Origin: an uncultured Verrucomicrobiae bacterium
GTDB lineage: Bacteria > Verrucomicrobiota > Verrucomicrobiia > Limisphaerales > JAFGQR01
Direction: 5' to 3'
NCBI GenBank assembly: GCA_963788655.1
Contig: CAWBHS010000099.1
Span: forward strand, 32,001-96,000
DNA length: 64,000 nucleotides
Positions 32,536 through 46,146 of the stretch are shown one piece after another (the first letter of the stretch is position 1; each line of letters opens with the position of its first letter). The notes under the pieces were generated by a model. That model was not told the DNA's origin and ran no database searches. It saw nothing but the letters and a program-made list of their open reading frames with translations. A program made the translations under genes and the position numbers.

Positions 32536-34353
32536 TCAGACGTTGGCCAGACGCTGTCGCAGCGCTTCAAGTTCCTGGCGCAGCCCCGCTGGCAAGGCGT
32601 CGCCGAATTTATCGTAGTAAGCACTGATGTTGTCGGCTTCCTCTTTCCATCCCGCGGCATCCACCGACAACAGATCCTTGACGTCTTCAGGCGACAGGTT
32701 CAATCCCGACAGATCCAGGGCTTCCGGGGTCGGGAGATTCCCGATGGGCGTCACTTGTGCCTGGCCCACACCGGCCACGCGTTCACAAATCCACTTCAGC
32801 ACGCGGCTGTTTTCGCCGTAGCCGGGCCACAACCATTTGCCGCGGTCATTGCGACGGAACCAATTGACAAAAAACACTCGGGGCAACTTGCTCCGGTCGG
32901 TTTTCTCCGGCAACGAAAGCCAATGGGCGAAGTAATGGCCCATGTTGTAGCCGCAGAAGGGCAACATGGCAAACGGATCGCGCCGCATCACACCCGATTG
33001 GCCAATGGCCGCAGCGGTGGTTTCCGAACCGGCTCCAGAGCCCAAGAACACGCCATGTTCCCAGTTGAATGCTTCATTGACCAATGGAACGGTCCCGGCC
33101 CGGCGACCGCCGAAAAGGATCGCGGACAGCGGCACGCCTTCCGGTTTTTCCCAGTCCGGATCAATGACCGGGCACTGGGCCGCGGGCGCGGTAAAGCGGG
33201 AATTGGGATGCGCGGCTTTGCGTCCACAGTCCGGAGTCCATTCGTTGCCCTGCCAATCGACCAGCTTGGGTGGCGCTTCCACGCCCATGTCTTCCCACCA
33301 CACATCGCCTTCGGGCGTGAGCGCCACGTTGGTGAAAATGCTGTTGCGGGCAAACGTGGCGACCGCGTTTGGATTGGACTTGTCGGAAGTGCCGGGCGCC
33401 ACGCCAAAGAAGCCGGCTTCCGGATTGATGGCATACAGCCGGCCATCCTCTCCGAGGCGAATCCAGGCAATGTCGTCGCCCAGGCACTGCACTTTCCAAC
33501 CGGGCAGCGAAGGCTGCATCATGGCGAGATTGGTTTTGCCGCAGGCGCTGGGGAATGCCGCCGAGACATAATATTTTTTTCCCTCCGGTGAAGTCAGCCC
33601 CAGAATGAGCATGTGTTCCGCCAGCCAACCTTCCCGGCGGGCGACCACCGAAGCAATCCGCAACGCCAGACATTTCTTGCCCAACAGGGCATTGCCGCCG
33701 TAGCCGGAGCCGTAAGACCATATCGAAGGATCGTCGGGAAAATGTACGATGTATTTCTTTTCCGGATCCGGTTCGCACGGCCAAGCCACATCCGCTTGTC
33801 CAGGTTGAAGCGGCGCCCCCACCGAGTGCATGCATGGGATGAACGAGCCGTTTCCCAGGACATCCAGCACGCTTTGCCCCATACGGGTCATAATCCGCAT
33901 GTTGCACACCACGTACGGCGAGTCGGTGATTTCGATGCCGATCTTGGCAATGGGCGCATGCAAGGGGCCCATGCTGAAGGGGATGATATACATCGTGCGG
34001 CCCGTCATGGAGCCTTGGAACAGCCCGCGCAGGTGTTTGCGCATTTGTTCCGGTTCGGTCCAATTGTTGGTGGGGCCAGCCTCTTCCGGTGTTCGCGCGC
34101 AAATAAACGTGCGTTTTTCAACCCGCGCGACGTCGCTGGGATGGGAGCGGGCCAGGAAACAGCCAGGACGCAATTCCGGATTGAGACGGGTAAAGGTTCC
34201 GCTCTTCACCATCAAATCGCACAGCCGGTCATATTCTTCTTCGGAGCCATCACACCAATGGACGTTGGCGGGTTGACACAATTGGACCATTTCCTCAACC
34301 CAAGCGAGGAGTTTCGCATTCGTTGTCGGCGCCACAGTTTTGTTTTCGGACAT
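32536..34353 (-). CDS. pckG: Phosphoenolpyruvate carboxykinase (GTP)
   Basis: [39 protein letters not shown] and [13 protein letters not shown] motifs. Confidence 0.97.
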
Positions 34354-34623: not shown

Positions 34624-36435
34624 TTACTCCTCGGTAGTAGCCGCCGGTTTGCATTGTGATTGGATTTCGCGAATCAGCTCGAAATTGCAAATCCGCACCT
34701 CCGGTTTGCCCAGGGTGCTGAAGACCAGCTCGTTGTCGGGGCCCACGGAGAGCAGCAAATGATCGGGTTTCAGATTCAGATCTTCAACGCCGCTTTCGCC
34801 AAGGCGCCCCGCGGTGCTTCGCAATAATTCAGTTTGGATCGTCTCCGTGATACGTCCCTCCAGCAGGGCCTGTTCAGCATTGATTCCCTGATGGTACTGC
34901 ATGTCCTGCGCGGCCAACAGTTCATCGGGCCCATTCCAGAAACCCCAGATCGTGATGTAATCGTGGTCTTCCCGCAATACCGGTTTGCCATCCGGCGTGA
35001 GCAAATCTCGGAAACGGTCGTACCGATGGTGATCGGATATCTTGCGCACCGCATCCGTCTTATGGCCGGTCATGTAAATCGCCCGCGGATAGACCGTCTT
35101 CAGCTTGCCCTGACCGATCCGAAACGCATACGCGAATTCCTCAAACGGTGTGTTGTACCCGTGTTGATAAATGTGCTGGGCCTGCTCGCTATCGCCCACC
35201 AGCACGGGCGCGTCGCCCATGCGGGAGATTTTCCAGACCAGGTGGATGTTGTCCTTGGTACGGGTGTAAAACACCTGGTTGCTGGGTGAAAGTGAAGTTT
35301 TGCGCGTGCGTCGCCAACGTTCGGGGAGGAAGTAATTGAACAAGTCGGGGTCACGCCCCACCACCCAAAGCAAGCCGCCGGTGCTTTCCGCATGGCCAAA
35401 AATGTAATCCACGCCCGATACCGTGGTTGCCTTCAGATGGGCGGGCAAAGGTTTGCTGGTCAGCGCCTCGAACCGCTTGGCCATGTGCTGCAGATAATGC
35501 CGTCGATGGACCTTGCGCACCGCCTCCTCATGATCGGGCGTGCGCTCCAGCAATTCATAATCCACCACCGCATAGACGAGTTGACCGTGTTTATCGCGCA
35601 CGAACGTGCGATTATCGGCCTTCGTCCGCACGATGATATGGGCCGGTTTCATATCGACCACGCGATACCCCTTTTGTTCCAGTTCATGATTCACCAGGCT
35701 AGTGGTGCTGGCATAGAACTCCTCGCGCTCCTTCGGATCGAGTTGCCAGAGGTCGGCCACATCGACGATGTCCAACCCTTTGACCCAACCGTACAGGACG
35801 ACGTATTGCCGCAGGATGTCCAATTCGACGCCGGGGGATTGCTTGATTTTGGCCGCGATCTTACTCTCGGAACGCCCCGTTTGCCAGAGCTGAAACCGTT
35901 CGGGCGGTACGTAAATCGCCAGGGGCCGCTGCGTGCGAATGCGAATTCCGCGCGGGCCGGTAGCCCCGGAACGTAGTTCCATCAAGAGCGAAAACTCCTC
36001 GAACGGACTGTTAAACTCGGCGTTGATGAATTTGTTGATCGTCAACGTGTCCACCGGCACCTCTTCCCCCACCCGCGACCATTTCACAACCAAGTGCAGT
36101 CGTTTGCCACGGACGCTGCGGGTGGGCACTTTATACACCACACTGGTTCCCACCAAACGCTCGCGTTTCGCTTCGAACCACTCCCGCGCGTACCAGTTTT
36201 CGGGCAGCAAGTGCTCCCAAAACGGAACCCCGAATTGCGTCAGATAAAGATCCCCGCCATCGCCGGTCTGACAATGGACATAGCCGACATCCAGCAAATT
36301 AACGTAGTTGGCGCCCGGGGGATGGGCCGTTCCGGCAGATATAAACGAAGTCTCCGGCACGATTTGGCCGACTTTCTCCGCGTTACCGAGAGCGGACGCG
36401 ACTGGAGTCACGGATGGATCCGTATCTAATCCCAT
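34624..36435 (-). CDS. Hypothetical protein made of two homologous kinase-like domains
   Basis: Internal duplication (LLPENW/FLPERW, HLVVKWSRVG/HLVWKISRMG, NSPFEEF/NTPFEEF). Catalytic-like DMKPAH and VDYE occur in repeat 1. Confidence 0.7.
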   Translation of the reverse strand: MGLDTDPSVTPVASALGNAEKVGQIVPETSFISAGTAHPPGANYVNLLDVGYVHCQTGDGGDLYLTQFGVPFWEHLLPENWYAREWFEAKRERLVGTSVVYKVPTRSVRGKRLHLVVKWSRVGEEVPVDTLTINKFINAEFNSPFEEFSLLMELRSGATGPRGIRIRTQRPLAIYVPPERFQLWQTGRSESKIAAKIKQSPGVELDILRQYVVLYGWVKGLDIVDVADLWQLDPKEREEFYASTTSLVNHELEQKGYRVVDMKPAHIIVRTKADNRTFVRDKHGQLVYAVVDYELLERTPDHEEAVRKVHRRHYLQHMAKRFEALTSKPLPAHLKATTVSGVDYIFGHAESTGGLLWVVGRDPDLFNYFLPERWRRTRKTSLSPSNQVFYTRTKDNIHLVWKISRMGDAPVLVGDSEQAQHIYQHGYNTPFEEFAYAFRIGQGKLKTVYPRAIYMTGHKTDAVRKISDHHRYDRFRDLLTPDGKPVLREDHDYITIWGFWNGPDELLAAQDMQYHQGINAEQALLEGRITETIQTELLRSTAGRLGESGVEDLNLKPDHLLLSVGPDNELVFSTLGKPEVRICNFELIREIQSQCKPAATTEE

Positions 36436-36631: not shown

Positions 36632-37711
36632 CTATTTCTTGGCGATTGGCGCCTTGGCTTCTACCCACCGGTCGGTGGCTCCCAACAGGACTTGGCGCAA
36701 TCGTGCCTGCACCCCGGTGATCAGGTCACTCGCTTCGGTTACCGTCAAGTTTTCCAGCATGGCGATTTCATCCGCTTCGAAGCCCTCCAAAAAGTGCAAC
36801 TCGAACACGGCGCGCTCTTTGACTGGCCACGAGGCGGTTACTTCGTGCAGGTAATGGACCAAGTCGTGTTCCATGGCAATGGCATCAGGACTCTCCGTTC
36901 GGCGGTCGGCCACCAGATCGGACAATCGCGCTGTCGTCGGTTCAAGGTTTTCCTCGATAATTCCCAACGGATTCTCCGCGTCGTATCCTTCCACGATCTC
37001 GGCCTCGTCGGCAACCGGTTGGGTTTCGTCCAACGGCACCGATTCCTGGCCTTCCACGCGCAATTGGCGGTATCGGCGCGCCAATTCCTGGCGCAGGAGA
37101 TCAAAGAGCCACAGCCGGTAACTCAACTCCGGCGGTTTGGCTTCCGGATCGGCCAAAGCTTGGCGCACCACTTCGTCAACCGCCGCCTCAGCCGTGATGG
37201 CGCCTTTGGGAACCAGACCGGAAAGATGCGCTCGGGAAAGTTGCCGCTGCACATGGTACAGCAACCGGCCATAGTACCGCTGAATCATCGTCGCCAGCGT
37301 ATCCGCGAGCGACTGGGGGCCTTCGGGATGCGGTTCAGCGGCAAACCGAAACGCGTTGTCCACCGGCACCAGCTCCCGCCGCGCCGCAGGCTTCCAATCC
37401 TGTTCGCGGCGCAACTCCGCTTTCAAGCTCCCCAACTCCCGCAGGAGCGCCGCCACCGCCTTGTCAAACGCGGTGATGGGATCCACCGCGGCCTTGTGAG
37501 TGTGCAGGATGTTTGAAGGTAGGCGTAACGTCAGGGCTACGGTGAAATGCTGCCGTTTGGGATGCCGTTCCAGGCTGACCAATAAGTGGACGGCATCCGG
37601 CGGAAAGTGCTGGAGATGCGTCTCCAATTTGGAAATCTTCTGGTGGATTTTCGACAGCAGTTGTTGGCGGGGACTAACACGTTTCGTGATCAGGTTCCAA
37701 GAGAGCGTCAT
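36632..37711 (-). CDS. HPF/RaiA-like domain fused to sigma-70 region 2/region 4-like domains
   Basis: The first ~100 aa have the S30AE pattern (KISKLETHL...FTVALTLRLPSNIL...AFDKAVAALLREL). Then AEAAVDEV...YRLWLF, and ERAVFELHFLEGFEADEIA...ARLRQVL. Confidence 0.75.
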   Translation of the reverse strand: MTLSWNLITKRVSPRQQLLSKIHQKISKLETHLQHFPPDAVHLLVSLERHPKRQHFTVALTLRLPSNILHTHKAAVDPITAFDKAVAALLRELGSLKAELRREQDWKPAARRELVPVDNAFRFAAEPHPEGPQSLADTLATMIQRYYGRLLYHVQRQLSRAHLSGLVPKGAITAEAAVDEVVRQALADPEAKPPELSYRLWLFDLLRQELARRYRQLRVEGQESVPLDETQPVADEAEIVEGYDAENPLGIIEENLEPTTARLSDLVADRRTESPDAIAMEHDLVHYLHEVTASWPVKERAVFELHFLEGFEADEIAMLENLTVTEASDLITGVQARLRQVLLGATDRWVEAKAPIAKK

Positions 37712-38380: not shown

Positions 38381-41300
38381 CTAAAATTCGTAGGCGAACG
38401 AGAGGCCGAGGGTGATGCCCTTGGTGTAAGCGGCATACGTGGCGGAGCCGTTCTTGCCGTAGGTGATTTCGTGTTTCGGATCCAGGAGATTCTTGGCGGA
38501 AAACTTCAACTTCATGTTTCGCCCGAGGCGTTGGGAGATGATGAAGTCCAGGCCGGGAGCCGGTTGCTCGTAGAGGTCCGGGCTGTTTTGGGAGGTAATG
38601 ACCAGCCGCGGCCCGGAGATATTAAACAGGAGCGACGCACTGGTGCCGCTACGCGGATTGTCGTAGCTCAAATCCACATTGGCGATGTAGGGAGATTGGT
38701 CCTCCAACGGGCGGGTGGTGTCATCGATGCGAAATTTGCGCAACGAGTTTTGCTCGTCATCCGGAATGTCTTCCTCCGATTCAATCAGGGTCAGATTGCC
38801 GCCCAAGCTGAAATGACGCAAGCTGCGATGGAGGAATGCCAGTGACTTGCGGGCTTCAAACTCCACCCCATAGACGGTGCCCTTATCGCGGTTCACGTAT
38901 CCAACAAAGTCACCCACCTTGTCCGTGGCGCGCTTTTCAATCAGATCCTTCAGATCCTTGTAGAAAATGCCGACCGAGAATATTTCCCCAGGATTGGGAA
39001 ACCATTCCCAGCGCAAGTCGTAGTTTTTTATTTGCGAGATGCGGAGATCGGCGTTGCCCGTCAGAAACACGTCCAGCACGGGATCGTAACTCTGGATCGG
39101 AGCCAGTTCGCGGAACGAGGGCCGGGCGATGGTTTGGCCATAGTTAAGCCGCAGATTCATATTGGTGCGGAGCGTATAGACCAGCCCGACCGCGGGCAGC
39201 AAATGGGCCTGGTCGAGACTGGAAGGGACATCCTCTCCGCTGGTGCCATTCAAGCCCGGGATGGTACTGCTGGACACCATGTCAATTTGGGTGGTTTCGT
39301 AGCGTGCTCCACCAATGAAACGCAGTCTCCGGCCCACGGGAAGATCCGTCATCAGGTAACCCGCCGTGATGGAGCGATCCCCGCTATAGCGATTGTCGAA
39401 GGGAGCATCCAAATAGGTGTTCCAATCAAACGCATAGGTGGTATTCCGGCTGGTCACGTTGGTCGTGACGGAAGCGATGCCCAAATTGGCGGGGGTCAGA
39501 TACTCGTTCGGATCCGGGTTCGCCAACTTGCTGTCGGGCGATTTATACTGATAGAAACGCTCTTTGAAGTTACGGGTGGATTGGCTGTCAAAGTAACCAA
39601 ACTTGATCTCGCCAGGATTCCAGGACAAGGGACTGAACGGCACCGCCAAGTCGAATTTCAGGTTCAGATTGTTTTCATCCAGGTTACGAAAGAAGCGGCG
39701 GGGAAATTGAGGATCGAGGTTGGCGTCGCCAAAGTTGCCCGAGCGCGCGGCGTAAAAACGCACGTCGGGCTCATCCTGGGTGGTATCGGTCAGGGTGGCC
39801 AGCCAATTGAATTTGACGTTCCTGAAGGGACGGAGTCAGGTCAAACACGTGGCCGCCTTTCAATTGGAACATAGTGAGGTTCCGTTCGATCCACTGCAAC
39901 CGGTCCTCGACCAACTGGTTGCCACCAATCGGATCTCCGGCCGTATGGTCGAAGCCCTGGCGCATGCGGGAACTATCCTCGGCAAATTGATTGTAAAGGA
40001 AGTTGAACCCAATCTCGTGATCATCACTGAGTTGGTAGGCCAGACTGACGGAGCCCGACCAGTTGATCGTCTCCTTGGATTTGGCCTCGGTGTATCCTTT
40101 GATTTGCTCCAGGTCTCCCGGTTCTTTGCTGAAATCGTATTTGTACCGACCGACCTCGCCATTGTCGTAGAACGAATACGAGTGGTTGTAAGGCAGATTG
40201 AAAAAGATGCCCACGGGCCGGCTGAACAGCAGCGCGGTGTCTCCGCCGGACAAAGAAAAGTTATGATTCAGCGGCGACATCGTGGTCGTGGGGCCCAAGG
40301 CCGCCGGACCCAGGATCTTGGTCAAGCGGTCGTTCGCATAATTGTCCTCGAGCAGTCGGGTGCCCTGGGCGGGGTTGGACGTTGTAATCCGAACGGTCTG
40401 CCGGCCGAGGGGAAACCCGATGCGTTTCTCCGCCTCCAGTTCGGGCGGCAATTGTCGGGTGCCATCGTCCATTCCCAGCCAATCGGTGCCCCCGCCCGGA
40501 TAGGTGAGGAAGTTCTTGTTCAGGCTGGCTTGGGTATTATACGAGCCTCCCACCTCGAGGCCAAAGAAGGGCTTTTCGGGAAACGACTTGGTGATGATGT
40601 TGATGTTGCCACCGGTGAAACTGCCCGGTTGATCGGGAGTGAACGTTTTGGTGACTGCCACCCGGTCGATGATCTTGGCGGGAAACATGTCCAGCGACGC
40701 CGAACGCCGGTACGGGTCCGAGGACGGCAGTTCGGCTCCGTTGAGCGTGGCCGCGCTGTAACGGTCGGTCAATCCGCGGATCACCGCATAGCCCTCACTG
40801 GACACCGCGGCGCCGGAGACTTTGCTGACAATCGCCGCGGCATCGGACACGCCCGATTTAGAAATCTGCTCGGAGCTTACCGCTTCCACGCCAGCCGCGG
40901 ACTTGGATCGTTCTTGATATACGGCGGAGATGGTGCTGGGCGGCGGTTTGAAGATGGAGAGCTTCGGCGGCGGAGGGGCGGCGCGCCGGGTGGCTCGTTG
41001 TTCCGTGGTTGGTTTCTTCTCCTGGGCTTCCCCCGACCCGCCTTTGGACTTGCCCCCGGTCTGGCTGCGGGTGTCAGTGAAAAAGGTCTGGCCCACAGCG
41101 GCCGGCGCGTCGGCCGCCACGGCCCGGCGGGTACCGCTGCTGGCTCGCGGGGTGAGGCTTTTGGGCAGTTGGGAACTGGGGGGCGGCGGCGGTGGCGGGC
41201 GCTCCGGTTTCCTGGTGGTTGCCTCTTCAACACGGCGTTTCTTCTCTGAACGTATAAACTTCAGGTAGCGATCCAAAAGTTCCTTACCTTTTTCCGTATG

Positions 41301-41399
41301 CGCCGCCCAGTATAGGACCCCGGCCACCAGAATTACATGAGCCACGATGGAAATGATGATTCCGGTGCGGTCCTTCTTGGATTTCGTCTTACGAGGCAT
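38381..41399 (-). CDS. TonB-dependent receptor with N-terminal TonB-like membrane anchor and Pro-rich spacer; frameshift near 39825
   Basis: Plug motifs IRGLTDRYSAATLNG, LDMFP and KTFTPDQPGSFTGGNINIITK; barrel motifs GGARYE, TIARPSFRELAP, NYDLRWEWFP and KNLLD; terminal AYEF. A one-base shift near 39825 gives NVKFNWLATLTDTTQDEPDVRFY and joins the two ORFs. Confidence 0.9.
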
Positions 41400-41492
41400 T
41401 AAAGCTCCAGATTAGAGGGGCATCTGTCCGATTCGGGAACGGCCAGCATTTCAGTCGGTGGCAAGGCGGGACCGGCATTGGCCCGCCGCGCA

Positions 41493-41912
41493 TCATCGCA
41501 AGGCTCCTCCCGTATCGGTGGCCAAACCGACTTTGTTGATGTTGGCCGAAATCAGCACGTCGAGCACATCCATGATCCGCTGGTAGTTGATGGCGCGGTC
41601 TCCGGCCACCACCACATTCAGATCTTCATCTTGCTTGCGGAACTCGACGAGGGTGCGCAGGAGTTGGTCCAGATTCATTTCCACGCCGTTCAGGAAGATC
41701 TTCCCCTGGTTATCGACCGAGACATAGTTCGCTTTCTTGGTCGGTTCTTCCTTCGGATTGGGGGTAGCGGAGGGAAGGCTGATGTTCACTTCATTCACGG
41801 GGGGCGCCGTCGTGATAATGAAAATGACGAGCAACACAAACGCCAGGTCGAGCAACGGCGTGATGTTCAGCTCGTGCATCGTCCCATGTTTGGAGGCGGA
41901 ATACTTTTTCAT
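41493..41912 (-). CDS. exbD: Biopolymer transport protein ExbD/TolR
   Basis: ELNITPLLDLAFVLLVIFII with the conserved membrane Asp, and VAGDRAINYQRIMDVLD. Confidence 0.92.
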   Translation of the reverse strand: MKKYSASKHGTMHELNITPLLDLAFVLLVIFIITTAPPVNEVNISLPSATPNPKEEPTKKANYVSVDNQGKIFLNGVEMNLDQLLRTLVEFRKQDEDLNVVVAGDRAINYQRIMDVLDVLISANINKVGLATDTGGALR

Positions 41913-41945
41913 AAGCCGGAAAGCAAATCGGGAGCCGGGTGGACC

Positions 41946-42821
41946 TCAGGCGCTGGCAAACGACGATTCGGTTTGGCCCTCCGCCCGCATCTTCTTGAGC
42001 GCGTCGGCAATCTCATCGGCAATCGGGCGATGGTCCACATAGCCGTGTTCGATCGCGGTGGCGTATTCGGCGGTGAAATTGTCCAGTTCCTGGGTGATGG
42101 CGCGGATGGTGGTAATCATGTAGTTATAAGCGAACATGGCGGGGATGGCGACAAACAGGCCGGTGACGGTGGCCAGCAACGCGGCCGCCACGCCCGGCGC
42201 CATGGCCGCCAGGCTGGCCGCCTGCACTTGGGCAATGCCGGAAAAGGTTTCCATGACGCCCCAAACGGTGCCCAGCAGCCCGATGAACGGCCCGCCGGCC
42301 ACAGCGGTGGACAGAATGATCATGCTTTTTTCCAACGAAATGGATTGGGCGCTCACCGCGCGTTCCAGGGCCACCCGAACCGATTCGAAGGAGGCCCCGC
42401 TGATCTTGACGGTGTTGGCTCGCGCAAAGTAATCCGTCTCCGCATGCTTGGCGAGGTCGTCCGGATTCTCGGATTTCACCGCGTCCACCTGGCTCACAAT
42501 CACCGGATTGTTTTTCAGATGGTAGGCCAATTCCTCCGCCCCGGTGAAGTACACTTCGTAAGCCGGTGCCCCGACGAACTCCTGCTCCTTGTTATACAGC
42601 TCCATGGGTTCACGCGTGGCCCGGTAGGCACTGAAAAATTTCCGGGCCATGGTGCTGGCCTTGATCAACTGCCGGCCTTTGCTGATCATCACCGTCCAAC
42701 TGAACAGGGAGAGGAAGATCAGCATGACAATGGTCATTTTGCCTTCGGTGGTCAGCTTGTCCACCGCGAAGGAGACGGCGTTCGCAAACATCGGGATCAG
42801 GTCGTGCGCTTCCATAATCAT
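41946..42821 (-). CDS. exbB: ExbB/TolQ/MotA proton channel protein
   Basis: LSTAVAGGPFIGLLGTVWGVM and GVAAALLATVTGLFVAIPAMFAYN. Confidence 0.92.
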   Translation of the reverse strand: MIMEAHDLIPMFANAVSFAVDKLTTEGKMTIVMLIFLSLFSWTVMISKGRQLIKASTMARKFFSAYRATREPMELYNKEQEFVGAPAYEVYFTGAEELAYHLKNNPVIVSQVDAVKSENPDDLAKHAETDYFARANTVKISGASFESVRVALERAVSAQSISLEKSMIILSTAVAGGPFIGLLGTVWGVMETFSGIAQVQAASLAAMAPGVAAALLATVTGLFVAIPAMFAYNYMITTIRAITQELDNFTAEYATAIEHGYVDHRPIADEIADALKKMRAEGQTESSFASA

Positions 42822-43388: not shown

Positions 43389-44342
43389 CTAGTTTGCCGG
43401 AGAAGCCGGCTCGTCGCCCACCGCACAGGGATTGGCGCGGTTGCCCAACCGTTTCCGCCATTCGCTGGGGCTGGTGCCGAACTGCTTTTTGAAGGTGGTG
43501 TTGAAGATGCCGGGATGCCGGTAGCCAACCGCCAACGCGACCGTGGCGATCTTCTCACTGGTTTCCGCCAACATCTGTTTGGCCTTGATCATGCGGATTT
43601 CCGCCTGTTTGGCGCGGAAAGACACGCCGACATTCTGAATGAACAACCGATTGAAGTGCCGCGGGCCACAGTTGCAACGGGCCGCCAATTCGGTGACGGA
43701 ACATTCCAAGATTTCTGCCTCGGGCAGTTGCTGGAGGAGCAGCCGGATACGTTTGTTGGCCGGCATGAACGTTTTGCCGGGCGTGCGCGTCTGCCGGCAT
43801 TCGCGGTCGAAGAATAACGCGGCGATCTGGAGCATCAGACATCGGGCCAGCAGGCCCTGACGTTGTGCCACCTGGGCCTGCAAGCGGAGAAAAGTGTCGG
43901 CGAGCGGATCCCCGGGGCGGAAGCGGCGCGCAACGGGCTTCTTCCGTGAGGGTAACAATTCCAGTTGCCGCAATTCGTCCAGCGTCAGCAGGCCCGGCAA
44001 TAACTCGGGACAAAATAGAAAGAAGCTTAAGGTCGCGTCCCCCAGTTGGCTGGCACGAAATGTCCCGGGCCGGTGCGGTACTACGATCAAGGCATCTCCC
44101 TCATCCAACTCGATCACTTCCCCCGCTCTCAACCAATAGCCGCGACCGGTGCTCAGCCGCAGGAAGCACCAGCACGCAAACTCCGCCTTCCATTCGCCCG
44201 AAGGCGGGAGGTTCTCTTCATACAATGAGAGATGGCTTTGACGATTCACTTTCTTTAGAACCCTGCGAATTTGGCATGGGCAGGTTACACTGCAAGGGCA
44301 GCCCGGCGACATTTCGGCAACAAGCTGGTGACGAAGAGTCAT
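43389..44342 (-). CDS. AraC-family transcriptional regulator (start uncertain)
   Basis: Cupin-like N-terminus and C-terminal SVTELAARC...KIATVALAVGYRHPGIFNTTFKKQFGTSPSEWR. Confidence 0.88.
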   Translation of the reverse strand: MTLRHQLVAEMSPGCPCSVTCPCQIRRVLKKVNRQSHLSLYEENLPPSGEWKAEFACWCFLRLSTGRGYWLRAGEVIELDEGDALIVVPHRPGTFRASQLGDATLSFFLFCPELLPGLLTLDELRQLELLPSRKKPVARRFRPGDPLADTFLRLQAQVAQRQGLLARCLMLQIAALFFDRECRQTRTPGKTFMPANKRIRLLLQQLPEAEILECSVTELAARCNCGPRHFNRLFIQNVGVSFRAKQAEIRMIKAKQMLAETSEKIATVALAVGYRHPGIFNTTFKKQFGTSPSEWRKRLGNRANPCAVGDEPASPAN

Positions 44343-44742: not shown

Positions 44743-46146
44743 ATGAAGAACACAAAATTCACTTGGGCGGCGCTGGCCGCCGGATCGCTCGCGGCCTTGG
44801 GCAGTGTGACCACGGCATCCGCACAATCATCGGACACCTTGATCGACGTGTTGGTGGACAAAGGGGTGCTCACACTGGATGAAGCCAAACAACTGCGGGC
44901 GGAAGCGGATAAGGATTTTACGCGGGCGTACGCCGCCAAGAGCGGCATGCCCGAATGGGTCACGGCCTTGAAATTCAGCGGCGATTTCCGGGGCCGTTAC
45001 GATGGAATTTATGTGGACAACCCGGCCCAGATTGACCGCCCGCGCTGGCGCTACCGTTTGCGGTTCGGTTTCACCGCGCTGATGTTGGACAACCTGGAAG
45101 TCGGACTCCGGCTGGCTTCGGGGAACGATGATCCGATTTCCCGCAACACAACCCTCAGTGACAATGGCGCGCCCAAACCAATCGGCATCGACCTGGCCTA
45201 CGGGAAGTATTACCTGCTCAACCGACCGACGGTGGGCGGGTCCGTCACCTTCGGCAAGATGAAGAATCCGTTCCATTTTTCTTCGATGGTTTTTGACCAC
45301 GATTACACGCCGGAAGGTGGCGCCATGCAGTACCAGTTCAATTTGAACCAGGATCCGGTCAAAGCCCAAGTCCTCAAGTTGAATCTCGGCGCGTTTGTGC
45401 TGGATGAACTCAAGGCCAGCAGTAGTGACCCGTATCTGCTGGGGGCGCAATTGCGATGGGAAGGCAAATTTGGCGAGGAACTGAAGCCGACCGGGTGGAA
45501 TGTATCAGCGGGCGTGGCGTTTCTGACCATTCAGAATGCCAACCAATTGACCCGGAGCGCGGTGCCGAATGTTGACACCGGGAATACGCGGATCCCAACG
45601 ACCAAGCAAGTCGTGTCACTGGATCCTTCGGTCGGCGTGACCACCAACTCATTAACTTCCTACGAAACCCTGGCCAACAAATTCAATCCCATTGTCGCCG
45701 ATGCCTCGGTTGGTTACACGCTGGAAGACTTCTGGATGTATAACGCACCATTCCCGATTGTGGTCGGGGGCGAGTACATGTACAACCCGGCCGCCGGCAC
45801 GCGCAACACGGGCTGGAACGTCGGCGTCACGTTTGGCAAGGCGGGCAAAAGCCGGCGGTGGGAACTGTCCTACAATTACAAATATTTGGAAAGCGACGCC
45901 TGGTATGAGCAGTTTGTGGACTCGGACTTCGGCGCCTATTATGCGGGCACTTCGCTCAACGGAACCAAGGGCTATGGCGCCGGCACGAATGTGCGTGGCC
46001 ACGTGATCTCCCTCGCGTATTCTCCGTTCAACTCGCTGACCCTGGCCGCCACCGCCTTTGTCACCGAACTGATCGACAAGCCGGCCGTATCCCATAACAA
46101 CAGCGACACCTTGCGCGTGCAGGTGGATGCACAATGGAAGTTCTGA
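44743..46146 (+). CDS. Putative porin (outer-membrane beta-barrel, likely phosphate-starvation induced)
   Basis: Signal peptide; LIDVLVDKGVLTLDEA helical N-terminus; LKFSGDFRGRYD...RYRLRFG; terminal QWKF. Confidence 0.85.
   Translation: MKNTKFTWAALAAGSLAALGSVTTASAQSSDTLIDVLVDKGVLTLDEAKQLRAEADKDFTRAYAAKSGMPEWVTALKFSGDFRGRYDGIYVDNPAQIDRPRWRYRLRFGFTALMLDNLEVGLRLASGNDDPISRNTTLSDNGAPKPIGIDLAYGKYYLLNRPTVGGSVTFGKMKNPFHFSSMVFDHDYTPEGGAMQYQFNLNQDPVKAQVLKLNLGAFVLDELKASSSDPYLLGAQLRWEGKFGEELKPTGWNVSAGVAFLTIQNANQLTRSAVPNVDTGNTRIPTTKQVVSLDPSVGVTTNSLTSYETLANKFNPIVADASVGYTLEDFWMYNAPFPIVVGGEYMYNPAAGTRNTGWNVGVTFGKAGKSRRWELSYNYKYLESDAWYEQFVDSDFGAYYAGTSLNGTKGYGAGTNVRGHVISLAYSPFNSLTLAATAFVTELIDKPAVSHNNSDTLRVQVDAQWKF

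Follow-up and report, generated by a model that had tools for sequence, protein, structure and literature searches.

A conserved gene fusion joins a TonB-type anchor and spacer to a TonB-dependent receptor downstream of exbB-exbD in Limisphaerales

The window analysed here is a stretch of 64,000 nucleotides (nt) from an uncultured Verrucomicrobiae bacterium of the order Limisphaerales (assembly GCA_963788655.1, contig CAWBHS010000099.1, positions 32,001 to 96,000). Its minus strand carries an operon of three genes in the order exbB, exbD and a third gene, starting at 41399, in which the N-terminal part of a tonB-like gene is joined to that of a TonB-dependent transporter (TBDT), an outer-membrane receptor with a plug and a β-barrel. 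All three genes lie on the same strand and are separated by gaps of 33 nt (exbB/exbD) and 93 nt (exbD/fused gene). The features of the operon are as follows.

41946..42821, minus strand: exbB, first gene of the operon, proton-channel subunit of the MotA/TolQ/ExbB family, 291 amino acids (aa) (PF01618, E = 1.8e-29).
41493..41912, minus strand: exbD, subunit of the TolR/ExbD family, 139 aa, with the transmembrane (TM) aspartate D22 (PF02472, E = 8.1e-27).
38381..41399, minus strand: whole fused gene, about 1000 aa if the frameshift is read through, aligning end to end with intact orthologues of 979-1003 aa.
41301..41399, minus strand: residues 1-33, a TM anchor of the TonB/TolA type, S17xxxH21, preceded by a basic cytoplasmic tail with 6 K/R in 13 residues (conservation, profile matches, orthologue model).
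41235..41300, minus strand: residues 34-55, juxtamembrane segment, placed where TonB has its D-box (in the window ...DRYLKFIRSEKK; alignment with free-standing Verrucomicrobial TonBs).
40938..41234, minus strand: residues 56-154, periplasmic spacer, Pro/Lys-rich and then Gly/Ala/Pro-rich (sequence; disorder in the orthologue model).
41067..41132, minus strand: residues 90-111, conserved spacer motif T-RRAVAADAPAAVGQTFFTDTR, where the TonB-derived part ends (alignments).
40908..40937, minus strand: residues 155-164, STISAVYQER, plug lead-in helix with the family consensus PSTIxxLLxER (alignments; orthologue model).
40644..40907, minus strand: residues 165-252, Plug domain (PF07715, E = 1.4e-8, 35.6 bits against a cut-off of 23.9).
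39830..40643, minus strand: first part of the β-barrel, in the frame of the start codon (aligns with intact orthologues; barrel strands in the orthologue model).
39815..39840, minus strand: +1 frameshift, frame 1 reading ...GGHVFDLTPSLQ and frame 2 NVKFNWLATLTDTTQDEPD (three-frame translation).
38381..39829, minus strand: remainder of the β-barrel in the +1 frame, ending ...FAYEF and a stop codon (PF00593, E = 1.1e-31; orthologue C-termini end in YDF or YEF).

A sequence-only reading of this DNA had proposed that the receptor carries its own TonB anchor, and its description is exact as far as the Plug domain. The N-terminus, MPRKTKSKKDRTGIIISIVAHVILVAGVLYW, read from the open reading frame (ORF) 39771-41399, has the basic tail, a helix of about 20 residues and both S17 and H21, the counterparts of S16 and H20 in the anchor of E. 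coli TonB. The spacer is rich in Pro and Lys (PERPPPPPPP, APPPPK) and continues without a change of frame into STISAVYQER (nt 40937, residue 155), and exbB-exbD lies directly 5' of the receptor gene, as the PF01618 and PF02472 matches confirm. Pfam identifies no TonB_C, TonB_2 or STN domain in the ORFs of the window or in four orthologues (E <= 1 for the TonB families), in agreement with the proposal that the gene lacks a TonB C-terminal domain.

Both a Plug and a TonB-dependent-receptor barrel domain are present, and the second ORF ends in F. The full barrel ending in Phe that the sequence-only reading had described thus has its terminal Phe, but it is not continuous, being split over two ORFs by a +1 frameshift. 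The first ORF (39771-41399) stops at 39771-39773, the second (38381-39763) lies in the +1 frame with homology from about 39829, and the shift falls near 39823. The orthologue from the same genus reads across this site in a single frame (GGHLFPSLKDLKFDWLATLTDTTQDEPD), and compared with its DNA the window has 10 extra bases, equivalent to three codons plus one base. A one-frame reading is likewise found in every other fused gene that is neither cut by a contig end nor interrupted by TAG. The source assembly is a draft of 115 contigs, 86% complete, and its essential genes rpoB and rpoC are each broken up into several frames. For this reason the frameshift is most likely an assembly indel, and because essential genes are broken in the same way it says little about the function of the gene. 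Any frameshift in this genome needs caution, since the assembly carries frequent indels. Programmed frameshifting was considered and is ruled out: the shift occurs in no relative, and housekeeping genes of the assembly are broken alike. Two soil-metagenome contig sets matched 9% and 7% of the sampled words; within 39500-41600 their contigs cover 40236-40560, short pieces to 40710, 40752-40902 and about 41178-41198, with none on 39815-39840 or 40903-41000.

Outside the window, on contig C45 (51013-58956), rpoB is found in three pieces in two frames and rpoC in at least five pieces, one of which has an in-frame TGA.

A profile of the N-terminal region, built from 18 N-termini (165 residues), was searched in 251 genomes sampled from Limisphaerales. 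The fusion, defined by an N-terminus that matches the full 164-position profile, occurs in 33 of these genomes. Thirty of them have it in open frames of 936-1160 aa, one of these in a closed genome of a single contig (G449); the remaining three are two genes cut by contig ends and the window's own frameshifted copy. Recurrence in 33 of 251 genomes excludes a chance origin of the architecture. In another 54 of the 251 genomes there is just a free-standing TonB, 220-310 aa long, which matches the profile from position 1 to about 100-117, and the fusion and a free-standing TonB of that type (E <= 1e-5) are found together in just 2 of the 33. In 300 genomes from the rest of the phylum Verrucomicrobiota the profile finds no fusion (E <= 1e-5), a search of limited sensitivity in which at most 12 candidates were scored per genome.

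When 61 related genomes were searched with the first ORF, the matches began at query residues 1-6 and lay within open frames of about 1000 aa. In the alignment with these relatives the anchor, the spacer motifs, the plug and the barrel are conserved along the whole length, and the same-genus orthologue is 70% identical and uninterrupted. The matching contigs come from Verrucomicrobiota and Limisphaerales draft genomes, and the carriers are soil and freshwater Verrucomicrobia from many families of the one order. exbB-exbD lies directly upstream, on the same strand, in all 21 of the relatives' loci with the flank covered (18 distinct and 3 further). The sequence-only reading had allowed that the junction might be a chimera or a deletion artefact; the order anchor, spacer, plug and barrel is instead common to many relatives. 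Because these homologues are single frames beside exbB-exbD in many genomes, one of them closed, the possibility of an assembly chimera or of a deletion private to this genome is excluded, and the fusion of anchor and receptor is real and conserved. In public databases the fused proteins are named only 'TonB-dependent receptor' or 'hypothetical protein', and since the genes carry just the receptor annotation the feature is invisible there.

Within the fused N-termini H21 is invariant (18 of 18), while position 17 holds either Ser (13) or Ala (5), and there is a weak NCBIfam match to the N-terminus of TolA (E = 1.3e-3). The profile has 130 matches among 1.84 billion representative proteins: 11 full-length fused clusters (964-1031 aa), numerous fragments and a large group of proteins of about 200-300 aa. 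Pfam was run on 42 short matches of 202-299 aa that lack a Plug domain (four others of like length, two of them Plug-bearing fused fragments and two familyless, were set aside), and it places TonB_2 or TonB_C at the C-terminus of 40 of the 42; profile E-values among these go down to 7e-13, and the anchor is where their matches begin. Fused proteins and free-standing TonBs are collinear from the basic tail through the S/A-xxx-H helix, the W-A-A-K-T/S-G turn, the juxtamembrane segment and the Pro/Lys/Glu spacer to a motif AP..A....F(F).D.(R/K). In free-standing TonBs a motif of the type AP..A..F.F.DG.K immediately precedes the TonB_2 head, and in the fused family the corresponding element (T90-R111 in the window) is conserved more strongly than any other part of the spacer (n = 18: T90 in 17, A98 in 18, P99 in 17, F107 in 18 and R111 in 18). 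Judged from these alignments, residues 1 to about 113 are of TonB ancestry, the T90-R111 motif marking their end.

The juxtamembrane segment reads LKFIRSEKK or FNLVPTKKPEP in fused proteins and IAVTMVAKEKP or LSVALVPKEKEP in free TonBs; that of the window aligns with IAVTMVAKEK / LSVALVPKEK. At this position the published D-box of TonB, described in the part of PMC10907165 considered here as a seven-position pattern of hydrophobic and hydrophilic residues, flanked by Pro and placed after the anchor, is well kept in the free-standing relatives. The helix of about 20 residues is by alignment and inspection homologous to TonB anchors rather than a cleavable Sec signal peptide, and no small-x-small or Ala-x-Ala site is conserved after it in the fused N-termini (alignment, by eye).

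The receptor part was modelled with AlphaFold from the same-genus orthologue and an alignment of 38 sequences (predicted local distance difference test, pLDDT, 81.5; predicted template modelling score, pTM, 0.77). The model has helices at residues 12-34 and 36-50 and a short one at 159-168 (PSTIxxLLxER), followed by the plug and a large barrel; residues 47-154 have pLDDT below 50 and are predicted to be disordered. The top Foldseek matches of the model are TBDTs of solved structure, PhuR, FecA, Cir and PiuA, with E about 1e-25. The nearest non-fused paralogues, about 1000 aa long, have a signal peptide and an N-terminal domain that is carboxypeptidase-regulatory-like, and their operons have the order exbB-exbD(-exbD)-tonB-TPR-TBDT with a different type of TonB. 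They carry a TonB-box-like strand, E(Y/F)EV(T/I)A, about 12 residues before the common lead-in helix (..ILxER..). At this position the fused proteins have a semi-conserved Phe/Leu between prolines. The sequence-only reading saw no TonB box in the window; the canonical E-Y/F-E-V-T/I-A box is indeed absent, but a degenerate hydrophobic remnant (LSIFK) is kept.

The window ExbB is 58-78% identical to the product of the gene upstream of every fused relative, and D22 and the C-terminal L130-A131-T132 of ExbD are invariant in all 18 ExbDs of fused operons. The operon of the free-standing relatives has the order exbB-exbD-tonB-exbD2, and its ExbB and ExbD are 58-62% and 49-57% identical to those of the window. 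Since the motor resembles that of this operon, and a free TonB of the type occurs in only 2 of 33 fusion genomes, the fused gene appears to occupy the tonB slot. A simple deletion within an exbB-exbD-tonB-TPR-TBDT operon was rejected as its origin, because the TonB of that operon lacks the SxxxH anchor and its ExbD is just 24-30% identical; motor and anchor of the fused operon match the exbB-exbD-tonB-exbD2 type instead. Prediction of a complex between two ExbD copies (residues 40-139) and fused residues 28-130, from family alignments, gave a score of 0.01 (mark 0.32), which speaks neither for nor against a contact.

Among the free-standing operons, those of L095-L098 have a second, diverged exbD after tonB, and at four loci (L093, L094, L096 and L097) a protein of 900-1000 aa is encoded just upstream of exbB.

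That there is no separate tonB holds for the operon but not entirely for the genome, which has a TolA-type gene and a weak TonB_C match beside another exbD. The genome contains just 2 Plug-bearing genes and 4 exbD genes, and its only strong match to TonB_2 or TonB_C is the TolA of a tolQ-tolR-tolA-tolB cluster. This cluster (L090:287-3257, contig C14) encodes a protein of 283 aa with an SAGMH anchor, followed by a β-propeller TolB-like gene. A TonB-like gene beside exbB/exbD on contig C60 (447-1713 of L002) seems to be split over two frames, with an SILIH anchor in one and a Pro-rich part and the weak TonB_C match in the other.

In trees of the plug and barrel the fused and non-fused forms interleave. 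The barrel tree (LG+G4, quick search) needs five changes of state, of which at least four are forced by well-supported branches. A single origin of the fused clade on this tree is rejected by the approximately unbiased test (difference in log likelihood 294, p = 5e-13); the fused group tested was fixed after the first FastTree had been viewed, in which three truncated or stop-interrupted rows counted as non-fused. The pattern implies either that N-terminal modules were swapped several times or that barrel segments recombined between paralogues. It also suggests, from sequence relationships, that closely related barrels may work with both kinds of N-terminus and that the fused and free wirings may be functionally interchangeable. 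Interleaving of this sort fits a covalent TonB module standing in for signal peptide, N-terminal domain, TonB box and free TonB.

We consider it probable (roughly 0.6) that the gene is a natural fusion of the TonB energy-coupling module to a large TBDT, giving one covalently driven trans-envelope protein. The module, comprising basic tail, SxxxH TM anchor, juxtamembrane segment and Pro/Lys-rich spacer up to the pre-head motif, would replace the receptor's signal peptide, carboxypeptidase-regulatory-like domain and canonical TonB box. The helix would be an uncleaved type II anchor in the inner membrane, docked on the ExbB-ExbD encoded upstream; that it is uncleaved is suggested by the positive-inside tail and the lack of a conserved small-x-small site. 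The spacer, of about 130 residues, would cross the periplasm, and the barrel, still tethered, would be inserted into the outer membrane by way of the Phe signal at its C-terminus, the finished protein spanning both membranes. Through the covalent link, proton-driven movement of the motor would be transmitted to the plug's N-terminus and displace or unfold the plug, and the non-covalent grip of TonB head on TonB box would go unused. The covalent link put forward in the sequence-only reading is supported by these findings. For its strongest form, in which the transporter is permanently connected to an ExbB-ExbD motor of its own and force reaches the plug through neither a TonB head nor a TonB-box handshake, we would give somewhat better than even odds. 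The direction of transport is presumably inward; neighbouring genes were also considered as a guide to the nature of the cargo, and any inference of a substrate from them was dropped, the flanking genes not being conserved. Among 18 flanking ORFs at 8 loci no conserved catabolic or binding-protein genes were found beside the operon, only scattered AraC, Porin_5 and CHAD genes.

Several observations weigh against this interpretation. We know of no precedent for the folding of a barrel that is still fastened to the inner membrane. With its frameshift, the window copy is on its face a broken gene, and among the public runs searched no RNA run matched the locus. One of the 30 open-frame genomes (G472, locus L036) has an in-frame TAG after residue 49, explicable as an error, as a nonsense mutation or as a gene that is naturally split. 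Of the NCBIfam models, those of TolQ and TolR give the motor higher scores than those of ExbB and ExbD, and all four scores lie below the equivalog cut-off (bits, with cut-offs in brackets: TolQ 140 (221), ExbB 104 (206), TolR 94.6 (127), ExbD 77.6 (216)). The TonB-box remnant persists, and because of it engagement by a free TonB could still occur. The Pro/Lys-rich composition of the N-terminus could inflate profile scores, a concern countered by the facts that the matches begin at the anchor and that nearly all of them are true TonBs. Finally, set against the D-box pattern as given in the part of PMC10907165 considered here, just the final five positions survive in the fused proteins (LKFIR in the window), and the segment is predicted to be helical.

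In L036 (region 2581-2730) the TAG falls right after the anchor and juxtamembrane segment, and the frame resumes into spacer, plug and barrel.

The main rival to a motor-driven fusion is proteolytic release, which we regard as unlikely: the N-terminus would serve only for export, as a signal-anchor that is clipped in the spacer, leaving an ordinary receptor that is either energised by a free TonB through the box remnant or not energised at all. Outer-membrane barrels normally cross the periplasm free, as is well established, and the hydrophobic remnant sits precisely where a TonB box would be; the TonB-like gene beside an exbD on contig C60 would supply a candidate partner. Export by itself, however, has no need of the TM His found in 18 of 18 N-termini, of a TonB-type juxtamembrane segment and spacer, or of strict linkage to exbB-exbD (21 of 21 loci). 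The conserved spacer motif (T90, A98, P99, F107, R111) could be read as a processing or recognition site, but it is also present in free-standing TonBs, which are not processed receptors, and by eye no small-x-small site is conserved after the helix. The rarity with which fusion and free TonB co-occur (2 of 33) fits replacement of the latter by the former.

Still less likely, in our estimation, is a protein that is tethered and motor-driven yet imports no nutrient, acting instead as an Oar-like protein exporter or as a TolA-like envelope tether. The Oar transporter of Myxococcus is reported, in the portion of PMC6434023 drawn on here, to export protein, and the nearest non-fused paralogues of the fused gene (about 1000 aa, carboxypeptidase-regulatory-like domain, exbB-exbD-tonB-TPR operons) have the architecture of Oar-type transporters as given there. 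The preference of the motor for TolQ and TolR models points the same way, as does the lack of conserved substrate-processing or periplasmic binding genes beside the operon. Against this, the genome has a separate and complete tolQ-tolR-tolA-tolB cluster, plug and barrel are intact and conserved as in working transporters, and nothing links the locus to secreted cargo.

Weak, and in our view very improbable, is the reading of the window copy as a decaying pseudogene or of the fusion as an artefact of an error-prone draft: the +1 shift in the barrel, the indel-rich assembly with its frame-split rpoB and rpoC and the public contig sets that leave junction and frameshift uncovered speak for it, but the anchor-spacer-plug junction is collinear with 30 uninterrupted orthologues, including the same-genus one (70% identity) and one in a closed genome, both halves are open, save for that single shift, with conservation extending to the terminal Phe, and a type of break shared with essential genes is uninformative about decay.

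The surroundings of the operon are as follows. Just downstream of the receptor gene, on the minus strand, a 359-aa ORF (36632-37711) has an S30AE/HPF ribosome-hibernation domain (E = 4e-7) and a weak, below-cut-off match to sigma-70 region 4 (E = 5e-4), an unusual pairing. A 603-aa ORF without a Pfam family (34624-36435, minus strand) lies between this HPF-like gene and one for a GTP-dependent phosphoenolpyruvate carboxykinase (32536-34353). Directly upstream of exbB is a gene for an AraC-family regulator (43389-44342, minus strand), and a Porin_5 outer-membrane porin is encoded divergently (44743-46146, plus strand). Flanking the fused operons of relatives, AraC occurs in L027 and weakly in L032, Porin_5 in L045 and CHAD-domain genes in L025 and L026. 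Regulatory or partner roles are conceivable for these AraC, Porin_5 and CHAD neighbours.

The way in which the Ton motor acts on a plug at a distance of 20 nm is a matter of continuing debate. In all studied Ton systems, to our knowledge, the contact between TonB head and TonB box is transient, and TonB is shared among many receptors. If the interpretation as a motor-driven fusion is correct, this contact can be replaced by a peptide bond, recruitment of TonB gated by ligand is dispensable and a barrel can be assembled on a substrate tethered to the inner membrane. The protein would then be a natural, minimal one-to-one Ton machine for testing models of pulling and rotation, its fixed 1:1 stoichiometry of motor and receptor being suited to structural and single-molecule force studies. 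It also poses a question of outer-membrane biogenesis, namely how a barrel folds with its N-terminus held in the inner membrane.

Compared with the canonical Ton system (E. coli TonB with FepA, BtuB or FecA), the fused operon has the same ExbB/ExbD-family motor with the TM Asp of ExbD, the SxxxH anchor, the Pro-rich spacer, a plug within a TBDT-type barrel and the terminal Phe. It differs in that the two partners are one polypeptide, without a TonB C-terminal head, a signal peptide or a canonical TonB box; such a receptor therefore cannot share its TonB with other receptors, nor engage it only when loaded. Unlike a transducer of the FecA type, the fused gene has no N-terminal STN domain (Pfam; window ORF and four orthologues).

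The free-standing TonB_2-type TonBs of Limisphaerales (for instance P0052 and a 223-aa gene in L095) are homologous to and collinear with the fused protein over their first ~113 residues. At their C-terminus they have a TonB_2 head (about 85 residues), and a second exbD comes next in the operon, whereas in the fused gene a linker leads on to plug and barrel, and no further exbD follows it. With the non-fused paralogues of about 1000 aa (Verrucomicrobiota, Bacteroidota, Ignavibacteriota, Rhodothermota and others) the fused protein shares the lead-in helix and a plug and barrel that are 36-49% identical; these paralogues differ in having a cleavable-looking signal peptide, an N-terminal domain, the TonB-box-like strand, a separate TonB and a distant motor (ExbD 24-30%).

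Full-text searches of the literature, judged by title and abstract and not extending to the supplements of PMC12204202, found no description of a TonB-receptor fusion. The closest published idea, going by the sections of that paper (Mol Biol Evol 2025, PMC12204202) considered here, is the inner-membrane-tethered vWA 'force transducers' encoded beside TolQ/TolR-like genes in the Planctomycetes-Verrucomicrobia-Chlamydiae group. In these, also found in Verrucomicrobia, an anchor or motor of the TonB/TolA type likewise drives a different end-piece, placed in the periplasm or the outer membrane; according to the same sections this is a soluble vWA head and in no case a whole outer-membrane transporter, as it is in the fusion described here.

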